A stretch of DNA of 64,000 nt from Desulfurococcales archaeon. GTDB taxonomy: Archaea; Thermoproteota; Thermoprotei_A; Sulfolobales; NBVN01. The notes beneath the pieces are model-generated. The model was not told the origin of the DNA and made no database searches. It saw nothing but the letters and a program-made list of their open reading frames with translations. The stretch covers positions 196 to 64,195 of the forward strand of contig JALWZB010000052.1 of assembly GCA_027002995.1 (NCBI GenBank), written 5' to 3'. Below, one piece after another: positions 4,871-58,799 of the stretch; within the stretch, counting starts at the first letter, position 1, and the number at the start of each line of letters is the position of its first letter. The translations under genes were made by a program, and so were the position numbers.

Positions 4871-6976
4871 ATTATCGTAGCGTTAGTCGGAAACCCGAAC
4901 GTCGGCAAATCCACACTATTTAACGTACTTACCGGGGAGACAGCACATGTAGGCAACTGGCCCGGCGTGACGGTCGAGCTGAAGCTGGGTATGCGCAAGT
5001 ACGAGGGCAGGAGGATATGCTTCGTTGACCTCCCTGGAACTTATGGAATCAGCGGCACTAGCCTCGAGGAGGTCGTCGCCCGGGAATTCATTGTTTCCAG
5101 CGAACCAGACGTCGTTATGGTGCTCGTCGACTCCACAGCCCCTGAAAGGACGCTCTACCTGGCGATCCAGGTGTTGGAGTTAACGCCGAACGTGATACTG
5201 GTTTTCACGAAGACTGATGAGGCACACCCGAGGGGAATTCACATACATTACGATAAGTTGGAGGAGTACCTAAGCGTCCCGGTAATCCCCGTCTCCGCGC
5301 TTAAGGGTGAGGGCATTAGGGACCTTCTCGAGGCACTCCTCAACTATAAGTCCAGGATTAAGCGGTCGGAACCCCTCACAATCGATTACGGCCCGCTGGA
5401 ACACTTCATACGTGAAATAGCGTCACTAATTGAGGAGGAGGGAGCCCTTCGCCAGTATCCCTCGAGATGGGTTGCTATTAGGTTGTTAGAGGGCGACATG
5501 CGTATTGAGGATCTGCTGAAGCAGGAAGGGAAGAAAGCCCTACTTAAGCGTGTGTGGAGCATCATCGACTCAGCGAGGAGGGTCCTCGGCGGCGACCTCA
5601 CGGAGCTCGCGATAAGGCAGCGTTTTGCGTTCGTTGATTCCCTGATAAGGAGGGTCGTGGTTAGGACGAAGGTTGAGGGAGGAAGTAGCCTTGAGAAGGT
5701 ACTACGTAGGCCGTTGGCTGGCCTCCTATTCAGTACGGCACTAACGCTGGGTGTCTTCCTGCTCATATTCTCGATAAACACAGGCTTCCCGCTGAACATC
5801 CTGCTTGAGTTGGCTGGGCAGGAGGGCTTAGCAGAGGCGGTGAGTACGTACAGCTTAAGCGGGATAGTCAGCATGGGATTCAACGAGCTCTCATCGCTGG
5901 CAGAGTCTGGGTTAAGTGCTGTGAACGCGCCCCACTGGTTCGTGTCCTTAGTGGCGAACGGCATCATACCGGGTGTTGGGTCTGTGCTCAGCTTCTTCCC
6001 CCTCATACTCATGGTGTTTCTGTTCCTGGCGATGCTTGAGGATAGCGGACTAATGCCTAGGATGGCCGTGGCGTTCCACTCCACCTTATCTAAGTTTGGT
6101 CTTTCCGGGAGGGCTGTTTACCCGTTAGTCATAAGCGTGGGCTGTAACGTGCCGGGCGTCATGACTAGCCGAACATCCCTCGACGATGTTGAGAGGCATG
6201 AGCTAATCTTCTCAGTTCCCTTTATCCCCTGCCAGGCTAGGTTAGTGGTTGGCTTAGCTTTCGCTATGGCTCTCTTCAAGAGCGCGGTCATGCAAGCAGT
6301 TGCCGTTGTATTCATCTATGCGCTAGGCACCGCGGCCGCCTTGCTGACAGCCATTATCATCCGTAGGGCTATCTACGGTATTCGCGAATCGCCTGAACTC
6401 ATAATGGAGTTACCACCCATACATAAGCCTAAGGCTAAGGTGGTGTGGTGGCTCACGTGGGACAACACTAAACACTTCCTCCGTAAGGCCGGGTTGATAA
6501 TATTCTCGCTAAGCATCGTTGTGTGGGCACTCCTCTACACGGGGCCTGAAGGGTACTTGCCTGACGTGTACGGAGAGAACTTCTTTCAGCACAGCTTCGC
6601 GGCAATCATAGGGAATGCTGTGGCCCCTGCCCTCACGCCTTTCGGGCTGAACTACACGCAGGCATGGAAAGTTGGGTTCGCGTTAGTGAATGGTTTCGTT
6701 GCGAAGGAAGTCGTGCTTGACAGCTTGTCCGTCCTGCATGGTGGCGCTAACCCGATAGTAGCCATTAGGGCGTTAGGGCTCAATGTTGCTCAAGGCCTCG
6801 GGATACTGGCGTTCATAACGCTTTATCTGCCCTGCTTAGCTACGCTCGCCGTCATGTATCAGGAGAGCAAGAGTTTAAGGAAGACCCTAATCTCCTTGAT
6901 GTACATGATGGGGTTAGCATACATTATCGCATTACTTGTTTACTACATTACAACCGCCCTACTCACCCTATTGTGA
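4871..6976 (+). CDS. feoB: ferrous iron transporter FeoB; 5' end unresolved
   Basis: P-loop VALVGNPNVGKSTLFN encoded at 4877-4924, then DLPGTYG and TKTD G-motifs and a polytopic membrane domain. The track start GTG 4967 lies downstream of the P-loop, and there is no ATG/GTG/TTG in frame between TAA 4817 and 4967. Confidence 0.85.
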   Translation: MIVALVGNPNVGKSTLFNVLTGETAHVGNWPGVTVELKLGMRKYEGRRICFVDLPGTYGISGTSLEEVVAREFIVSSEPDVVMVLVDSTAPERTLYLAIQVLELTPNVILVFTKTDEAHPRGIHIHYDKLEEYLSVPVIPVSALKGEGIRDLLEALLNYKSRIKRSEPLTIDYGPLEHFIREIASLIEEEGALRQYPSRWVAIRLLEGDMRIEDLLKQEGKKALLKRVWSIIDSARRVLGGDLTELAIRQRFAFVDSLIRRVVVRTKVEGGSSLEKVLRRPLAGLLFSTALTLGVFLLIFSINTGFPLNILLELAGQEGLAEAVSTYSLSGIVSMGFNELSSLAESGLSAVNAPHWFVSLVANGIIPGVGSVLSFFPLILMVFLFLAMLEDSGLMPRMAVAFHSTLSKFGLSGRAVYPLVISVGCNVPGVMTSRTSLDDVERHELIFSVPFIPCQARLVVGLAFAMALFKSAVMQAVAVVFIYALGTAAALLTAIIIRRAIYGIRESPELIMELPPIHKPKAKVVWWLTWDNTKHFLRKAGLIIFSLSIVVWALLYTGPEGYLPDVYGENFFQHSFAAIIGNAVAPALTPFGLNYTQAWKVGFALVNGFVAKEVVLDSLSVLHGGANPIVAIRALGLNVAQGLGILAFITLYLPCLATLAVMYQESKSLRKTLISLMYMMGLAYIIALLVYYITTALLTLL

Positions 6977-7023
6977 GTTCTGAGTTACGCTGGAAGCATG
7001 GAATTTTGTATCATAGCAAATCA

Positions 7024-7031
7024 CTTAAAAG
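7024..7031 (+). promoter_or_regulatory. TATA-box-like element upstream of the aRF1-family gene
   Basis: CTTAAAAG; a start about 26 nt downstream would fall at 7053-7058, next to GTG 7058. Confidence 0.4.
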
Positions 7032-7061
7032 GGCGGCTAGTGAGACTATGAGATAGGGTGA

Positions 7062-8168
7062 TCGGCATTTAGTGATAAGTTCAGGATATCGAAGAGCGAG
7101 CTGAAAAGGCTCCTGAGGGAGCTGAAGAAGTGGAGTGCCCATGCAACCACGCTCCTGAGCCTCTACATACCTCCGGGTAGGCCGATTGCTGACGTAGTTA
7201 ACGTTCTGCGTCAAGAGCTGTCCATAACCGAGAACATAAAGCTGAAAGCAACTAGGAACCGAGTTCAGACAGCGTTGAAGGCAGCCATAGATAGGCTTGT
7301 TAAGATACCGAAGGTCCCTCCGAATGGCTTAGTAATATTTGCGGGAGAGCATGATGAAACTGGTGAGACCATAGCCCTAGTGTTTGAGCCTCCAGAGCCC
7401 ATTAAGGCGTTCTTCTATAGGACCGACAAGTTCTTCCACACGGAGTTCCTTGAGGATATGGTTGCGGAGAACGACGTGTACGGCCTTATAGTAATTGAGA
7501 GAGATGAAGCAACAATAGGTCTGCTTAAAGGCAATGCCATAAGGGTTCTGGACGAGATCGAGGGCTACATACCGGGTAAGCATAGCCGAGGTGGGTGGTC
7601 TCAGAGGAGGTACGAGAGGATCATAGAGGAACTAACTAGGGACTTCTTCAAGAGCGTTGGGGAGAAAGCTACTAACCACTTCCTACCGCTCCTCCAAGAT
7701 GGTAAGCTCAAGGGAGTAATCATTGGAGGTCCCGGCTACACTAAGCTAGACTTCGTTAAGGGCGACTTCCTAGATTACAGACTTAAGCGCTTGGTGCTCC
7801 CCAAGACCATAGATGTGAGTGACCAAGGAGAGCCCGGGCTCAAGGAGCTGGTTATGAGGGCTGAAGACATGATAAAGCAACACATCTACATAAGAACCCA
7901 GAAGGCCCTTGAGGAATTTAACTACCACCTAGCCAAGGACGATGGCCTAGCAATCTACGGTGAGAAGGAAGTTATCGACGCCTTAAACCTCGGCGCTGTT
8001 AAACACATTATAATAACGGAGGATCACCCCAAGTTCGAGGAGATAGTTAAGCTTGCCGAGAAGAAAGGTGCTGAGGTCTACGTGCTCACTGATGAAGTAC
8101 CAGACTATATGTGGATTAAGAAGACGTTCAACGGCTTAGTAGGTGTTCTCAGGTACCAGATCTACTAG
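7062..8168 (+). CDS. prf1: aRF1-family protein (class I release factor homolog) with atypical motifs; 5' end unresolved
   Basis: Frame is open from 7062 (TGA at 7059-7061). Residues upstream of the track start TTG 7275 encode the conserved aRF1 N-domain (LLSLYIPPGRPIADVVNVLRQELSITENIKLKATRN). The middle domain has GKHSRGGWSQRRYERIIEE. No in-frame canonical start before 7275. Confidence 0.8.
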   Translation, partial: SAFSDKFRISKSELKRLLRELKKWSAHATTLLSLYIPPGRPIADVVNVLRQELSITENIKLKATRNRVQTALKAAIDRLVKIPKVPPNGLVIFAGEHDETGETIALVFEPPEPIKAFFYRTDKFFHTEFLEDMVAENDVYGLIVIERDEATIGLLKGNAIRVLDEIEGYIPGKHSRGGWSQRRYERIIEELTRDFFKSVGEKATNHFLPLLQDGKLKGVIIGGPGYTKLDFVKGDFLDYRLKRLVLPKTIDVSDQGEPGLKELVMRAEDMIKQHIYIRTQKALEEFNYHLAKDDGLAIYGEKEVIDALNLGAVKHIIITEDHPKFEEIVKLAEKKGAEVYVLTDEVPDYMWIKKTFNGLVGVLRYQIY

Positions 8169-8291: not shown

Positions 8292-11228
8292 ATGGTCAGC
8301 ACTAAGGACGCAGGTAAGAAGGGAGCTAAGCTAAGGTCACCAATAGTTACCGTGCTAGGACACGTAGATCATGGCAAGTGTCTTCACCCAGACGAGAGGG
8401 TGGTGTTAGCCAATGGTAGGTTAGTCAAGGTAAAGACGCTCTTTGAGGGTGTCGCAGGAGGCAACATCATTAATGCTGGGGATGGATATGAGTTCATTAA
8501 GAGAAAAATTGGGGTGACGACCCTCACCCCTCAAGCACGCGTGAGGCGCGGCAGGACGAGTAAAGTGTGGCGCGTTTGGTATGAAGGGTACCTATACGAG
8601 ATTACCCTAAGTGATGGAAGTAGGGTAAGGGTGACGCCAGAGCATCCGTTCCTGACTCTTGATGGATGGATTAGAGCGGGGGACATTACCGTGGATGACG
8701 CGGTCGCCGTAGCTACGAGCGTACCCAACCCGGAGAACTCGTGGAGCATTCTGGCCCGCATCGCACGCCTAGCGGGGATTAAGGAAGGTTTAGGACGTGT
8801 CGGTAGGGCCGCCTGGCGCCGTGCATTCGAACTCGTGGGCCTCAGGTGCGCTGGCCGGGTAATCGACTCGTCACTTAACGACACCATTGAAGCGGTAGCT
8901 GTCGCTAACGCTACGTCGGAGGTGCTCGCGGCCGCACTAGGGCTTAAGGTGAGTACCTCGGCTAAGCTCGCGGGGTGCGTACTCGCAGCCAGTAAGGCAT
9001 GGGGCGATAGTGTATTCGTGCCTGCCTCAGTCCTTCAAGCCCCGAATACCTTGCTTGGAGACTTCATCCGCGGCTTAGTGAAGGGGTCCGGAATCATAGA
9101 CCCTGAGACGCCTGAGATCCTGATCCCCGTCCCAAGCCTTGAGGCTGGTGTGGAGGTTAAGTATGTCCTAGCCCGCTTAGGCGTGTTCTCCTCCATCACC
9201 GAGTTAAGGACGCACCACTACGTTAGGGTTGCTGGCGTGAAGGACGTTGACTTACTCGCTAGGAAGGCAGGATTGAGAATCGATGTTATTGGTGAGGGTA
9301 GTATTGATGATGGCAGGGTCCTCAAGCTAGGTGACGTGCAGTTCATCAGCGTCAAGTCCATCCGCAGGATCCCGTATAAGGGATACCTTTACGACCTCTC
9401 CGTACCGCCAACGCAGTGTTTCATCGCCAATAACGTTGTAGTGCATAACACCACGCTCCTCGATAAGATACGTGGTACGGCAGTCGTTAAGAAAGAGCCT
9501 GGCGAAATGACCCAGCACGTCGGCGCATCAATGATTCCTGCCTCAGTAATAGAGAAGATCGTTGAGCCGCTCAAGTCAATGTTCCCAATAAAGCTTAAGA
9601 TCCCGGGCCTGCTCTTCATAGACACGCCTGGCCACGAGGCCTTCTCTAACTTAAGGAAGCGCGGAGGAAGCATAGCTGACTTCGCAATACTAGTCATCGA
9701 TGTTATGGAGGGCGTTGAGAAGCAAACCATCGAGAGTATCCAGATACTCATGAGTAGGAAGGTCCCCTTCGTTGTCGCCGCTAACAAGATAGATAGGATC
9801 TACGGGTGGAGGCCTCAGCCCGATCAACCCTTCCTCTTCTCAATGAGGCAGCAGAGCAAGAGGGCTTTAGAAGAGTTGGAACGGAGAATATATACCATCG
9901 CTGGACAGCTCTCTAGCTTAGGTATCCCTGCCGAGAGGTTCGACAGGATCAGGGACTTCACGAAGGCAATAGCGATCGTGCCAGTCTCAGCCAAGACAGG
10001 GGAGGGTATCCCCGAGCTACTTGCCGTCTTAGCCGGCTTGACGCAGAAGTACTTAACGAAGAGGATACTATTCACGGAGGGTCCGGCGAAGGGCGTTGTG
10101 CTGGAGGTTAAGGAAATACCTGGTCTGGGGACGTGCTTAGACGTCGTGATATATGACGGGATCCTGAGGCGTGGCGACATAATAGTCGTGGGCGGAATGA
10201 AGGAACCCATAGTTACTAGGGTTAGGGCCCTCCTCATGCCAAGGCCCCTCGAAGAGATGAGAGCCGCTAGTGAGTCGGCATTCAAGAACGTTGACGAGGT
10301 CGTGGCGGCGGCGGGCGTTAGGGTCAGCGCCCCCGGCCTTGAGGAAGCAATAGCTGGCGCGCCGCTGTACGCAGTGGAGAGCGAGGAGAAGGTTAAGGAG
10401 TATGTTGAGAAGGTGAGAGAGGAAGTAACGCAGGTGAGGTTCTCCAAGGACATTAACGGCGTCATAGTTAAGGCTGATACCCTAGGCACACTTGAGGCTG
10501 TCGTGGGCATGCTTGAGTCCAAAGGCATACCGGTTAGGCTAGCAGACGTAGGTCCCTTAACTAAGAGGGAGGTAATTGAGGCGTCAATAGTTGCGAAGCA
10601 GAACAGGTACTACGGTGTGGCGCTCCTGTTCAATGTCAAGCCACTACCAGACGCCGAGGAACTCGCTAGGAAGGAGGGTGTGCGCATATTCCAAGACTCG
10701 ATAATCTACAGGTTAATCGAGGCGTACGAGAACTGGGTGGCAAAGGAGAAGCAGAGGGAAGAATACTACGAACTCCTCAAAACGGTGTTCCCGGCTAAGT
10801 TCCAGGTGCTTCCCGGGTTCGTGTTCAGACGCAGTGACCCGGCAGTCGTCGGCATACGGGTGCTGGCGGGCGTGATCAGGCCTGGCTACCCGATAATGCG
10901 TGACGACGGAAGACCCCTTGGTAAGATATATCAAATCCAGAGCAAGGGTAAGAACTTAGATGAGGCGAAGGCTGGGAAAGAGGTCGCTATTTCAATTGAG
11001 GGCAACGTCTTAGTGGGTCGCCACTTCGATGAAGGCGACGTCCTCTACACCGACCCCAGCGAGAAGGATTTGGAGACTGTGTTAACTAGGTTCAGGAAGT
11101 ACGTGACTAAGGACATGCTACCCTTGATCGAGGAAATCATTAGGATCAAGAGGAAACGAGATAAGAGGTTCGGGTTACCTATACTCCTCAAGCTGAGGAG
11201 TTTGAAGAAGGAGTTTGAAGGTAAGTGA
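8292..11228 (+). CDS. infB: translation initiation factor aIF5B (IF2 homolog), intein-containing
   Basis: 978-aa ORF; GTPase P-loop GHVDHGK interrupted after Lys29; DTPGHEAF, NKID; extein is 621 aa after intein removal. Confidence 0.95.
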   Translation: MVSTKDAGKKGAKLRSPIVTVLGHVDHGKCLHPDERVVLANGRLVKVKTLFEGVAGGNIINAGDGYEFIKRKIGVTTLTPQARVRRGRTSKVWRVWYEGYLYEITLSDGSRVRVTPEHPFLTLDGWIRAGDITVDDAVAVATSVPNPENSWSILARIARLAGIKEGLGRVGRAAWRRAFELVGLRCAGRVIDSSLNDTIEAVAVANATSEVLAAALGLKVSTSAKLAGCVLAASKAWGDSVFVPASVLQAPNTLLGDFIRGLVKGSGIIDPETPEILIPVPSLEAGVEVKYVLARLGVFSSITELRTHHYVRVAGVKDVDLLARKAGLRIDVIGEGSIDDGRVLKLGDVQFISVKSIRRIPYKGYLYDLSVPPTQCFIANNVVVHNTTLLDKIRGTAVVKKEPGEMTQHVGASMIPASVIEKIVEPLKSMFPIKLKIPGLLFIDTPGHEAFSNLRKRGGSIADFAILVIDVMEGVEKQTIESIQILMSRKVPFVVAANKIDRIYGWRPQPDQPFLFSMRQQSKRALEELERRIYTIAGQLSSLGIPAERFDRIRDFTKAIAIVPVSAKTGEGIPELLAVLAGLTQKYLTKRILFTEGPAKGVVLEVKEIPGLGTCLDVVIYDGILRRGDIIVVGGMKEPIVTRVRALLMPRPLEEMRAASESAFKNVDEVVAAAGVRVSAPGLEEAIAGAPLYAVESEEKVKEYVEKVREEVTQVRFSKDINGVIVKADTLGTLEAVVGMLESKGIPVRLADVGPLTKREVIEASIVAKQNRYYGVALLFNVKPLPDAEELARKEGVRIFQDSIIYRLIEAYENWVAKEKQREEYYELLKTVFPAKFQVLPGFVFRRSDPAVVGIRVLAGVIRPGYPIMRDDGRPLGKIYQIQSKGKNLDEAKAGKEVAISIEGNVLVGRHFDEGDVLYTDPSEKDLETVLTRFRKYVTKDMLPLIEEIIRIKRKRDKRFGLPILLKLRSLKKEFEGK
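8379..9449 (+). mobile_element. intein (357 aa) in the aIF5B P-loop
   Basis: Starts with Cys (CLHPDERVVLANG) right after GHVDHGK, has block B VTPEHPF, ends VVVHN followed by Thr (TTLLDKIRG); central LLGDFIRGLVKGSG resembles a degenerate LAGLIDADG motif. Confidence 0.9.
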
Positions 11229-46286: not shown

Positions 46287-46374
46287 TGGCGCCGGGGGCG
46301 GGATTTGAACCCGCGTGGGCGCGTAGCCCACCGGCTCTCCAGGCCGGCCCCTTGGGCCGCTCGGGCACCCCGGC
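46287..46374 (-). tRNA. tRNA-Ser (anticodon GGA), type II long variable arm, CCA encoded
   Basis: GCCGGGG acceptor pairs with CCCCGGC; anticodon stem CCGGC/GCCGG with loop CUGGAGA; variable arm UGGGCUACGCGCCCACG; T arm CGGGUUCAAAUCCCG. Confidence 0.93.

Positions 46375-58684: not shown

Positions 58685-58799
<115 letters not shown>

Follow-up and report, generated by a model that had tools for sequence, protein, structure and literature searches.

How does an archaeon make its release factor when the reading frame that encodes it has no start codon of its own? The question is raised by a 64-kb stretch of a Desulfurococcales archaeon genome (contig JALWZB010000052.1; 'the window' below means all 64,000 nucleotides of that stretch), which carries the gene for aRF1, an essential translation factor that reads all three stop codons. 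The aRF1 open reading frame (ORF) is closed on its 5' side by TGA 7059-7061, then reads TCG GCA TTT AGT GAT AAG TTC AGG ATA and continues uninterrupted to TAG 8166-8168. Its first ATG, GTG or TTG is TTG 7275; because none precedes it, the ORF list gives only a 297-aa aRF1 product. The conserved N-domain (eRF1 domain 1) is encoded upstream of that codon. In a different frame, GTG 7058-7060 opens a mini-ORF (ORF0) that reads GTG ATC GGC ATT and then TAG (7070-7072), TGA (7073-7075) and TAA (7076-7078). Relative to ORF0, aRF1 (ORF1) lies in the +1 frame.

Comparison with homologous loci makes it probable that aRF1 is made through an obligatory, conserved +1 programmed frameshift at the fifth codon, with negative feedback by aRF1 on the shift. 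We rate the frameshift alone higher than this joint statement; the feedback, which we infer, is its weaker part. The predicted product joins M-I-G-I to 365 residues, 369 aa in all, and no stop interrupts ORF1 between 7071 and 8165, so no second recoding event would be needed. A sequence-only reading of this DNA had proposed initiation at GTG 7058, a +1 shift at AUU-UAG and a product beginning M-I-G-I-S-D-K-F-R. Everything it said of the sequence (the TATA-like box, GTG 7058, the stop string, the aRF1 frame and TTG 7275) was confirmed when we read the letters again, and its start and shift now draw strong support from 80 orthologous loci, over the alternatives it had listed.

The same layout recurs at orthologous aRF1 loci

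A scan of one genome per GTDB species yielded 23 orthologous loci. The wider sample comprised isolate genomes, reached by exact-protein look-ups, and 80 metagenome contigs, reached by a profile scan. Removing identical sequences and two doubtful calls (L099, a false positive, and L089, which is ambiguous) left 80 non-identical loci, and these underlie the counts below. Thermogladius has the frameshift layout but stands outside the 80.

Each of the 80 loci presents a start codon, 2-4 (rarely 5) sense codons, NTT, a stop, and aRF1 in the +1 frame. ORF0 has 3-5 sense codons, usually 3 or 4. At all 23 loci from the GTDB-species scan, a start and two or three sense codons lead into (A/T)TT TAG C, with aRF1 one base rightward. 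Identity of the 80 loci to the query falls to ~61% over the anchor (the aRF1 N-terminal region, query residues 19-140), and the whole-protein identity of frameshift loci to the window falls to ~53%. Such recurrence is far greater than chance would produce. We looked among the orthologs for a plain in-frame ATG without a conserved stop and found the opposite, a conserved NTT-stop.

Carriers of the layout belong to the Desulfurococcales and Sulfolobales. The site reads ATG AGC CTT TAG C in Desulfurococcus amylolyticus, ATG AGT CTT TAG C in D. mucosus and ATG GGT TTT TAG C in Thermogladius. Saccharolobus islandicus (CP001731) has AGGG ATG AGT CTT TGA C, Sulfodiicoccus acidiphilus ...CTT TGA G, and a contig with the Metallosphaera yellowstonensis protein ...CTT TGA C. 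The N-termini predicted for the frameshift products are M-S-L-D-E-Y-A-L-N-K in S. islandicus and M-S-L-S-Y-S-E-D-Q in Desulfurococcus. The sequence-only reading had looked to the Thermoproteales for relatives; the best-matching loci, at 99% identity, are instead on contigs of Desulfurococcales metagenome-assembled genomes (WAOL01000008.1 and JALVVU010000167.1).

In a neighbour-joining protein tree, frameshift-type loci form one large clade that holds both the Sulfolobales and the Desulfurococcales. Plain-start genes are nested within it at least twice, in the Pyrodictiaceae/Hyperthermus group and in L029/L036. A locus outside the tree, L115 (Acidilobales), is probably a third nested loss; its repair differs, consisting of one extra base and an in-frame ATG. 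The outgroups have ordinary in-frame starts, and those that begin TTG GAG GAG CTT... are presumed to be Thermoproteales-like. The simplest history suggested by the tree would be one origin followed by several losses, as for bacterial prfB.

An invariant T run and a stop define the proposed shift site

We found that the last ORF0 sense codon, which would occupy the P site, is ATT in 40 loci, TTT in 20, CTT in 19 and TAT in 1. The stop that follows is TAG (66 loci), TGA (13) or TAA (1), and the next base is C (65), T (12), G (2) or A (1). Across the junction T is invariant at -2, -1 and 0. A stop is completed after the shift codon in 80/80 loci, a rare sense codon stands there in none, and TTTGG never occurs. 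The internal codons of ORF0 vary freely (ATC, ATG, AAG, CCG, TCG, CTA and others). Two heptamers familiar from other systems are among the sites, CTT TAG C in 7 loci and CTT TGA C in 8. The T run extends to 5-6 in some lineages (L021-L023, L078); most loci have only T3. The use of all three stops across lineages fits a sensor for an omnipotent factor.

Judged by codon, a slippery P site (NUU-U, which becomes UUU in +1) is present in 79/80 loci; that the tRNA re-pairs there is a prediction. The remaining locus, L034 (about 1467-1490), reads GTG ATG AAG TAT TAG C, with UAU in the P site. UAU re-pairs poorly in +1, which suggests that the shift may not strictly need tRNA slippage.

The triple stop TAG-TGA-TAA of the window had been thought to fit such a feedback device. 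Comparison does not support this, as the first stop alone is conserved: L001 and L002, 99% identical to the window, read TAG CGA TAA, and distant loci read TAG CCA GTA and the like. At 7073 the window has a T that, read in the aRF1 frame, turns AGC into the synonymous AGT.

Coding constraint in the +1 frame reaches back to the junction

Substitutions counted over pairs of loci in the first 10 +1 codons are distributed 1007/620/1901 over codon positions 1/2/3. Synonymous and non-synonymous codon differences stand at 1185:1242 in the aRF1 frame versus 268:2352 and 243:2491 in the other frames, a synonymous share of about half versus ~10%. Coding-type constraint begins exactly at the first +1 codon, and the aRF1 ORF is under strong purifying selection.

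Codon choice at the junction has a similar signature. The first +1 codon encodes Ser in 66 loci and is then without exception AGY, a class to which 49% of the Ser codons in the rest of these ORFs belong. No other Ser codon yields TAG after the T before it. At TGA sites the first +1 residue is Asp or Glu (GAC, GAT, GAG or GAA), and with TAA it is Asn (AAT).

Natural variants in which the two frames are fused give the same register. L029/L103 read GTG CAC GGA TTT AGC GAG TAC and L036 reads GTG TCT AGA TTT AGT GAG TAT, both in frame. They are exactly one base shorter than their sister loci, for example GTG ATC GGT ATT TAG CGA ATA C. The fused genes encode M-x-x-F-S-E-Y, and the frameshift prediction for the sister lineages, M-x-x-I-S-E-Y, is of equal length.

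Most loci offer no alternative start

In 65 of the 80 loci, the stretch of the aRF1 frame from its upstream stop to the junction contains no ATG, GTG or TTG. The next in-frame start in these loci is a median of 17 codons downstream (maximum 89), and a protein begun there would lose conserved N-terminal residues. In 50 loci the ORF0 start and a TGA that closes the aRF1 frame overlap as ATGA or GTGA.

Current RefSeq-style annotation starts aRF1 at a downstream TTG, GTG or ATG. The 'MSKEEL' start of many database entries is the GTG of an R-V-S-K-E-E-L segment. Depending on the locus, the codon aligned to that GTG is GTG, GTA, GTT, GTC, ATA or ATT (ATA 7086 in the window), and it is therefore not a conserved start. 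Public aRF1 entries from Sulfolobales and Desulfurococcales (P0001-P0120 and P0121-P0208) have very inconsistent N-termini, and their lengths range between 297 and about 413 aa. Some begin within domain 1 (MLRQEL..., MLSLYVP...), and others at spurious upstream codons that read ...W-V-F-S-Y-S-E-E... through the site. The inconsistent N-termini are a systematic annotation artefact of an unrecognised frameshift.

A Thermosphaera-like group is arranged differently. In L021-L023, L073 and L078, the mini-ORF GTG/ATG GGT TTT TAG C is accompanied by an in-frame ATG 6-12 codons upstream. In L021-L023 and L078 a conserved GGG block precedes this ATG (GGG ATG AGG CTG TGG GTT TTT AGC). Either route could be usable at such loci. 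We also considered initiation at GTG 7072 of the window followed by a -1 shift, and rejected it; the codon is GCG in L001 and L002 and is absent elsewhere.

Signals around the site

In the clade of the window, ORF0 starts 21-26 nt 3' of a TATA-like box (L001-L005, L007-L009, L014-L016, L019-L020, L031-L033, L035 and L039); in Sulfolobales the distance is 31-32 nt. Given the usual archaeal TATA-to-start spacing, the window transcript is predicted to begin at about 7054-7056, with a leader of 2-4 nt before GTG 7058. The position of the box suggests that the mRNA is probably near-leaderless throughout this clade. The Sulfolobales leader would be about 8 nt long and would include the G-rich block described next.

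Across the 80 loci, a conserved block, R-G-K-G-A-T-G, occupies -13 to -7 from the stop, and G/T is favoured at -5/-4. Coding in the aRF1 frame does not explain the conservation of this block. It is complementary to the archaeal 16S rRNA 3' tail, which, with no 16S gene in the window, we take from the literature to be ...GAUCACCUC... In the window, 3 nt separate the end of the Shine-Dalgarno (SD)-like GGGUGAUC from AUU; when it is aligned to the anti-SD, the spacing becomes ~8 nt. In most lineages the core GAGG/GGG lies directly 5' of the ATG or overlaps the start, 6-7 nt from the shift codon. The 3-nt, prfB-like spacing claimed by the sequence-only reading is therefore retained only if pairing runs through GGUGAUC in the window's clade, and it does not extend to most lineages. 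The G-rich block lies too near the start codon for an initiation SD; it may stimulate the shift.

The gene encodes a bona fide aRF1

The window protein scores 431.5 bits against TIGR03676 (aRF1_eRF1), for which the cut-off is 234.7. Pfam finds only eRF1_1/2/3 and related archaeo-eukaryotic release-factor families in the product, and does not find the bacterial class-I release-factor fold (RF-1/PCRF domains) in it. The nearest solved structure is Aeropyrum pernix aRF1 (3AGK/3VMF), and the alignment to it begins at residue 2 of the +1 product. The window gene is a bona fide aRF1, and its likeness to prfB is functional, not by descent. To our knowledge, aRF1 is the sole factor that reads the ORF0 stops.

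The catalytic GGQ of release factors is usually called universally conserved. Among the 120 closest database homologs, the motif at this position is GGQ in 80, GGW in 39 and GGK in 1. The GGW carriers are the window, L001-L020, L029, L031-L037, L039 and L042. In the neighbour-joining tree they group as a single clade that covers many lineages at species level, and most have retained the frameshift cassette. There is no second aRF1 in the 64-kb window, and a genome scan returned no second aRF1 locus for 20 GGW genomes, which is weak evidence, as the patterns were tuned to close relatives. Our search found no literature on a GGW aRF1. The stop-recognition motif NIKS is NIKL in the window and in 119/120 of the closest homologs, GGQ-bearing ones included, and NIKL is therefore the normal form for the group. 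The exception, P0007, is N-terminally truncated and lacks the region.

A model of the shift and its rivals

We propose that translation of a nearly leaderless mRNA would begin with GTG 7058 and proceed through GTG-AUC-GGC-AUU (M-I-G-I), after which UAG 7070-7072 would enter the A site. Prompt action by aRF1 would release a useless tetrapeptide. Were termination slow, peptidyl-tRNA(Ile) could re-pair from AUU to the UUU that overlaps it, or the ribosome could skip the initial U of UAG; Ser-tRNA would then read AGU 7071-7073, and the ribosome would continue to the 369-aa aRF1. Because the competing reaction is termination by the gene's own product, the site should sense aRF1 by negative feedback, and because there is no other start, the shift should be obligatory. 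That slippage is ribosomal rather than transcriptional, as well as the details of tRNA re-pairing, we infer. With less assurance, we also lean towards a broader reading: an ancient cassette (start, 2-4 codons, NUU, stop) would be present throughout Sulfolobales and Desulfurococcales, with UAG, UGA and UAA interchangeable, serving as a negative-feedback sensor of termination capacity.

Several points weigh against this proposal. An in-frame start lies upstream of the site in 15/80 loci, notably in the Thermosphaera-like group, so the shift may be optional or bypassed in some lineages. The SD-like block is not at the compressed prfB spacing that pushes ribosomes forward. The GGW in place of GGQ makes the release-factor catalysis of the window protein uncertain. 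Re-pairing of tRNA(Ile) from AUU to UUU is weaker than in the classical CUU or UUU cases, and re-pairing is poor at the UAU-UAG of L034. The site has no conserved RNA structure around it: for 27 diverse sites RNAalifold gave no predicted pairs, the 5' region of the window folds no better than shuffles (z = -0.92), and Rfam gives no match at E <= 10 in 6900-7400. We know of no characterised precedent for a shift only 3-5 codons after initiation.

The rival that fares best is still unlikely. It accepts a real and obligatory shift and dispenses with feedback, so that the site would set a fixed low aRF1 yield or respond to Ser-tRNA, aEF1-alpha or temperature. The site is so near the start that early-elongation kinetics could dominate, and its SD-like spacing is unlike that of prfB. 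However, selection for competition with termination predicts what the alignment contains, a stop after the shift codon at every locus and any of the three stops in that place, and aRF1 is the only factor known to us that reads them.

Transcriptional slippage has a slim chance. RNA polymerase would drop one U in the T run (ATTTAG, CTTTGA, GTTTTTAG), which would put the start in frame and yield a protein equal to the +1 ribosomal frameshift product. At least three T are present at every site, and the longer runs of L021-L023 and L078 would suit such a mechanism, but the prevailing T3 is far short of the homopolymers known to support productive slippage. Nor would slippage need the run to complete a stop, yet it does so without exception.

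Slimmer still is the chance that translation begins at a non-canonical in-frame codon (ATA 7086, AAG 7077 or AGG 7083) or by termination-reinitiation after the mini-ORF. The neighbouring feoB also has no canonical in-frame start, so unusual initiation may occur in this lineage, and ATA 7086 aligns with a Val codon that is called as a GTG start in several orthologs. We rejected ATA 7086 as the main start because the aligned codon varies and coding constraint is already found upstream of it, from the first +1 codon. Only 2-3 codons separate the closing TGA from the site (TCG GCA TTT in the window; GTC TTT in Sulfolobales), none of them near-cognate, and the invariant NTT-stop would be left unexplained. 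A one-base sequencing or assembly error in the T run, or a decaying pseudogene, is next to impossible: the window resembles metagenome-assembled genomes, and one extra base would mimic the layout in one sequence, but the same frame structure recurs in about 80 independent assemblies, finished isolate genomes included, and the ORF is intact for 365 codons under strong purifying selection.

Features and neighbouring genes in the window

The coordinates of the elements discussed above are collected in Table 1.

Table 1 Features at the 5' end of the aRF1 gene and within it
Feature	Position	Strand	Basis or remark
TATA-like box CTTAAAAG	7024..7031	+	Read in the sequence; similar box in the window's clade
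SD-like GGGUGAUC, complementary to the archaeal 16S rRNA 3' tail	7056..7063	+	Holds the ORF0 GTG and the TGA closing the aRF1 frame
ORF0, GTG ATC GGC ATT TAG (M-I-G-I-stop)	7058..7072	+	Equivalent mini-ORF in 80 orthologous loci
TGA closing the aRF1 frame just 5' of the shift site	7059..7061	+	Read in the sequence
Putative shift heptamer A_UU_UAG_U (P-site AUU, A-site UAG, 3' U)	7067..7073	+	NTT-stop in orthologs
ORF1, encoding aRF1 in +1, from AGT (Ser) to the stop TAG 8166-8168	7071..8168	+	Substitution pattern and domains
TGA TAA after TAG in the ORF0 frame, incidental	7073..7078	+	Missing from all other orthologs
GGT GGG TGG, Gly-Gly-Trp at the catalytic GGQ position	7590..7598	+	Read in the sequence; homolog comparison

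Upstream of aRF1, feoB (listed as 4967..6976) has a frame that is open from TAA 4817, with no ATG, GTG or TTG before GTG 4967. Its G1 motif GNPNVGKS (about 4889-4912) and a conserved E-T-G-A-T-K-Q-E-C-D-I-I-V-A-L-V-G are encoded upstream of that GTG, and ATG 4864 lies in the -1 frame. Among close relatives, L004 reads GGGG ATG TGA AAC with feoB in +1, and L003 reads ATA TGA AAC; the distant relatives L006, L008 and L013 have a plain in-frame ATG. The feoB 5' end could reflect non-canonical initiation or a second early +1 event.

Downstream of aRF1, a gene for an aIF5B/IF2-type GTPase (8292-11228) has an apparent intein in its P-loop (...VLGHVDHGK / CLHPDER ... VVVHN / TTLLDKIRGT...), as read from the ORF translation only. 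The window also holds two tRNA genes, at 58686-58796 (+) and 46290-46374 (-). The first spans 111 nt against a 71-position model and probably contains an intron.

Relation to known recoding systems

The E. coli prfB site reads AGG GGG UAU CUU UGA C, after an ORF0 of 25 codons. The archaeal layout resembles bacterial prfB in that the gene encodes a class-I release factor that reads the ORF0 stop, and in that a short ORF0 precedes a main ORF in +1 without a start of its own. At both, a P-site NUU is followed by the U of the stop, so that the +1 codon is UUU, and C usually follows the stop; a G-rich, anti-SD-complementary block lies upstream. The CUU UGA C of Sulfolobales is the E. coli prfB heptamer itself. 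In contrast to RF2, aRF1 has the eRF1 fold and is not homologous to it. The archaeal ORF0 has only 3-5 sense codons, which would place the shift right after initiation, on an mRNA that is probably leaderless or nearly so. The archaeal sites use UAG, UGA or UAA, whereas RF2 sites use UGA only, and the archaeal P-site codon is AUU or UUU as commonly as it is CUU. The archaeal G-rich block overlaps or abuts the start, 6-8 nt from the shift codon rather than 3. In both systems some lineages lost the shift by one base, as ~30% of bacteria did at prfB (PMC3521657).

The eRF1-type genes Mimivirus R726 and Megavirus mg280 have a +1 shift at CUU UAG C and CUU UAA C, respectively, and the authors of that work state that the homologs in archaea and eukaryotes have no such autoregulation (Jeudy et al. 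2012, PMC3521657). These viral genes belong to the eRF1/aRF1 family, and CTT TAG C is also the heptamer of Desulfurococcus and of several metagenome loci. They differ in needing readthrough of an upstream UGA as well, with both events after a long 5' coding segment, whereas the archaeal genes would need a single event at codon 4-5 and have no other in-frame stop.

Eukaryotic +1 sites include antizyme (UCC UGA U), yeast Ty1/ABP140 (CUU AGG C) and Euplotes (AAA UAA/UAG) (in part from PMC5009743). They share with the archaeal site a slow A-site event on archaeal/eukaryotic-type ribosomes, a stop as the pause (antizyme and Euplotes) and a favoured CUU (yeast). They concern other genes and other sensors (polyamines, rare tRNA), and antizyme relies on a pseudoknot 3' of its site, while the archaeal site shows no detectable structure. 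Within archaea, a 2021 review (PMC8211752) gives the -1 shift of Saccharolobus solfataricus fucA1 as the sole report of programmed frameshifting in a cellular gene. Both fucA1 and aRF1 are crenarchaeal cellular genes. The fucA1 shift, in one species and in an enzyme that is not essential, goes -1 at A-AAA-AAT and has a putative stem-loop; that of aRF1 would be +1 at a stop, conserved across two orders, in an essential translation factor.

We found no archaeal aRF1 recoding described in the searchable full-text literature, which does not reach many papers in subscription journals. Neither the GeneTack survey (PMC3711429) nor the 2016 frameshifting compendium (PMC5009743) lists an aRF1 frameshift, and the 2021 review of archaeal recoding (PMC8211752) has its one -1 case and no cellular +1 case. 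What is new here is that a known regulatory principle would hold in another domain of life, for an unrelated protein family and with a different site geometry.

Implications

If our reading is true, archaeal cellular genes would have in the aRF1 site their first conserved +1 recoding event. Bacterial RF2 and the giant-virus release factors, which autoregulate by frameshifting, would be joined by a third case, independent (or ancestral). Such autoregulation has so far been regarded as a bacterial speciality. The aRF1 cassette would change that picture and would inform the choice between a convergent and an ancestral mechanism. The use of all three stops at one homologous site offers a new kind of comparative evidence on the sensing of an omnipotent factor. 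Annotation pipelines, which already have a ribosomal-slippage rule for prfB, could gain one for aRF1. The genetic model Saccharolobus islandicus carries the site, and the reading is directly testable in tractable Sulfolobus/Saccharolobus. The cassette would provide a natural system for the study of +1 frameshifting, stop-recognition kinetics and SD-like effects on archaeal/eukaryote-type ribosomes.

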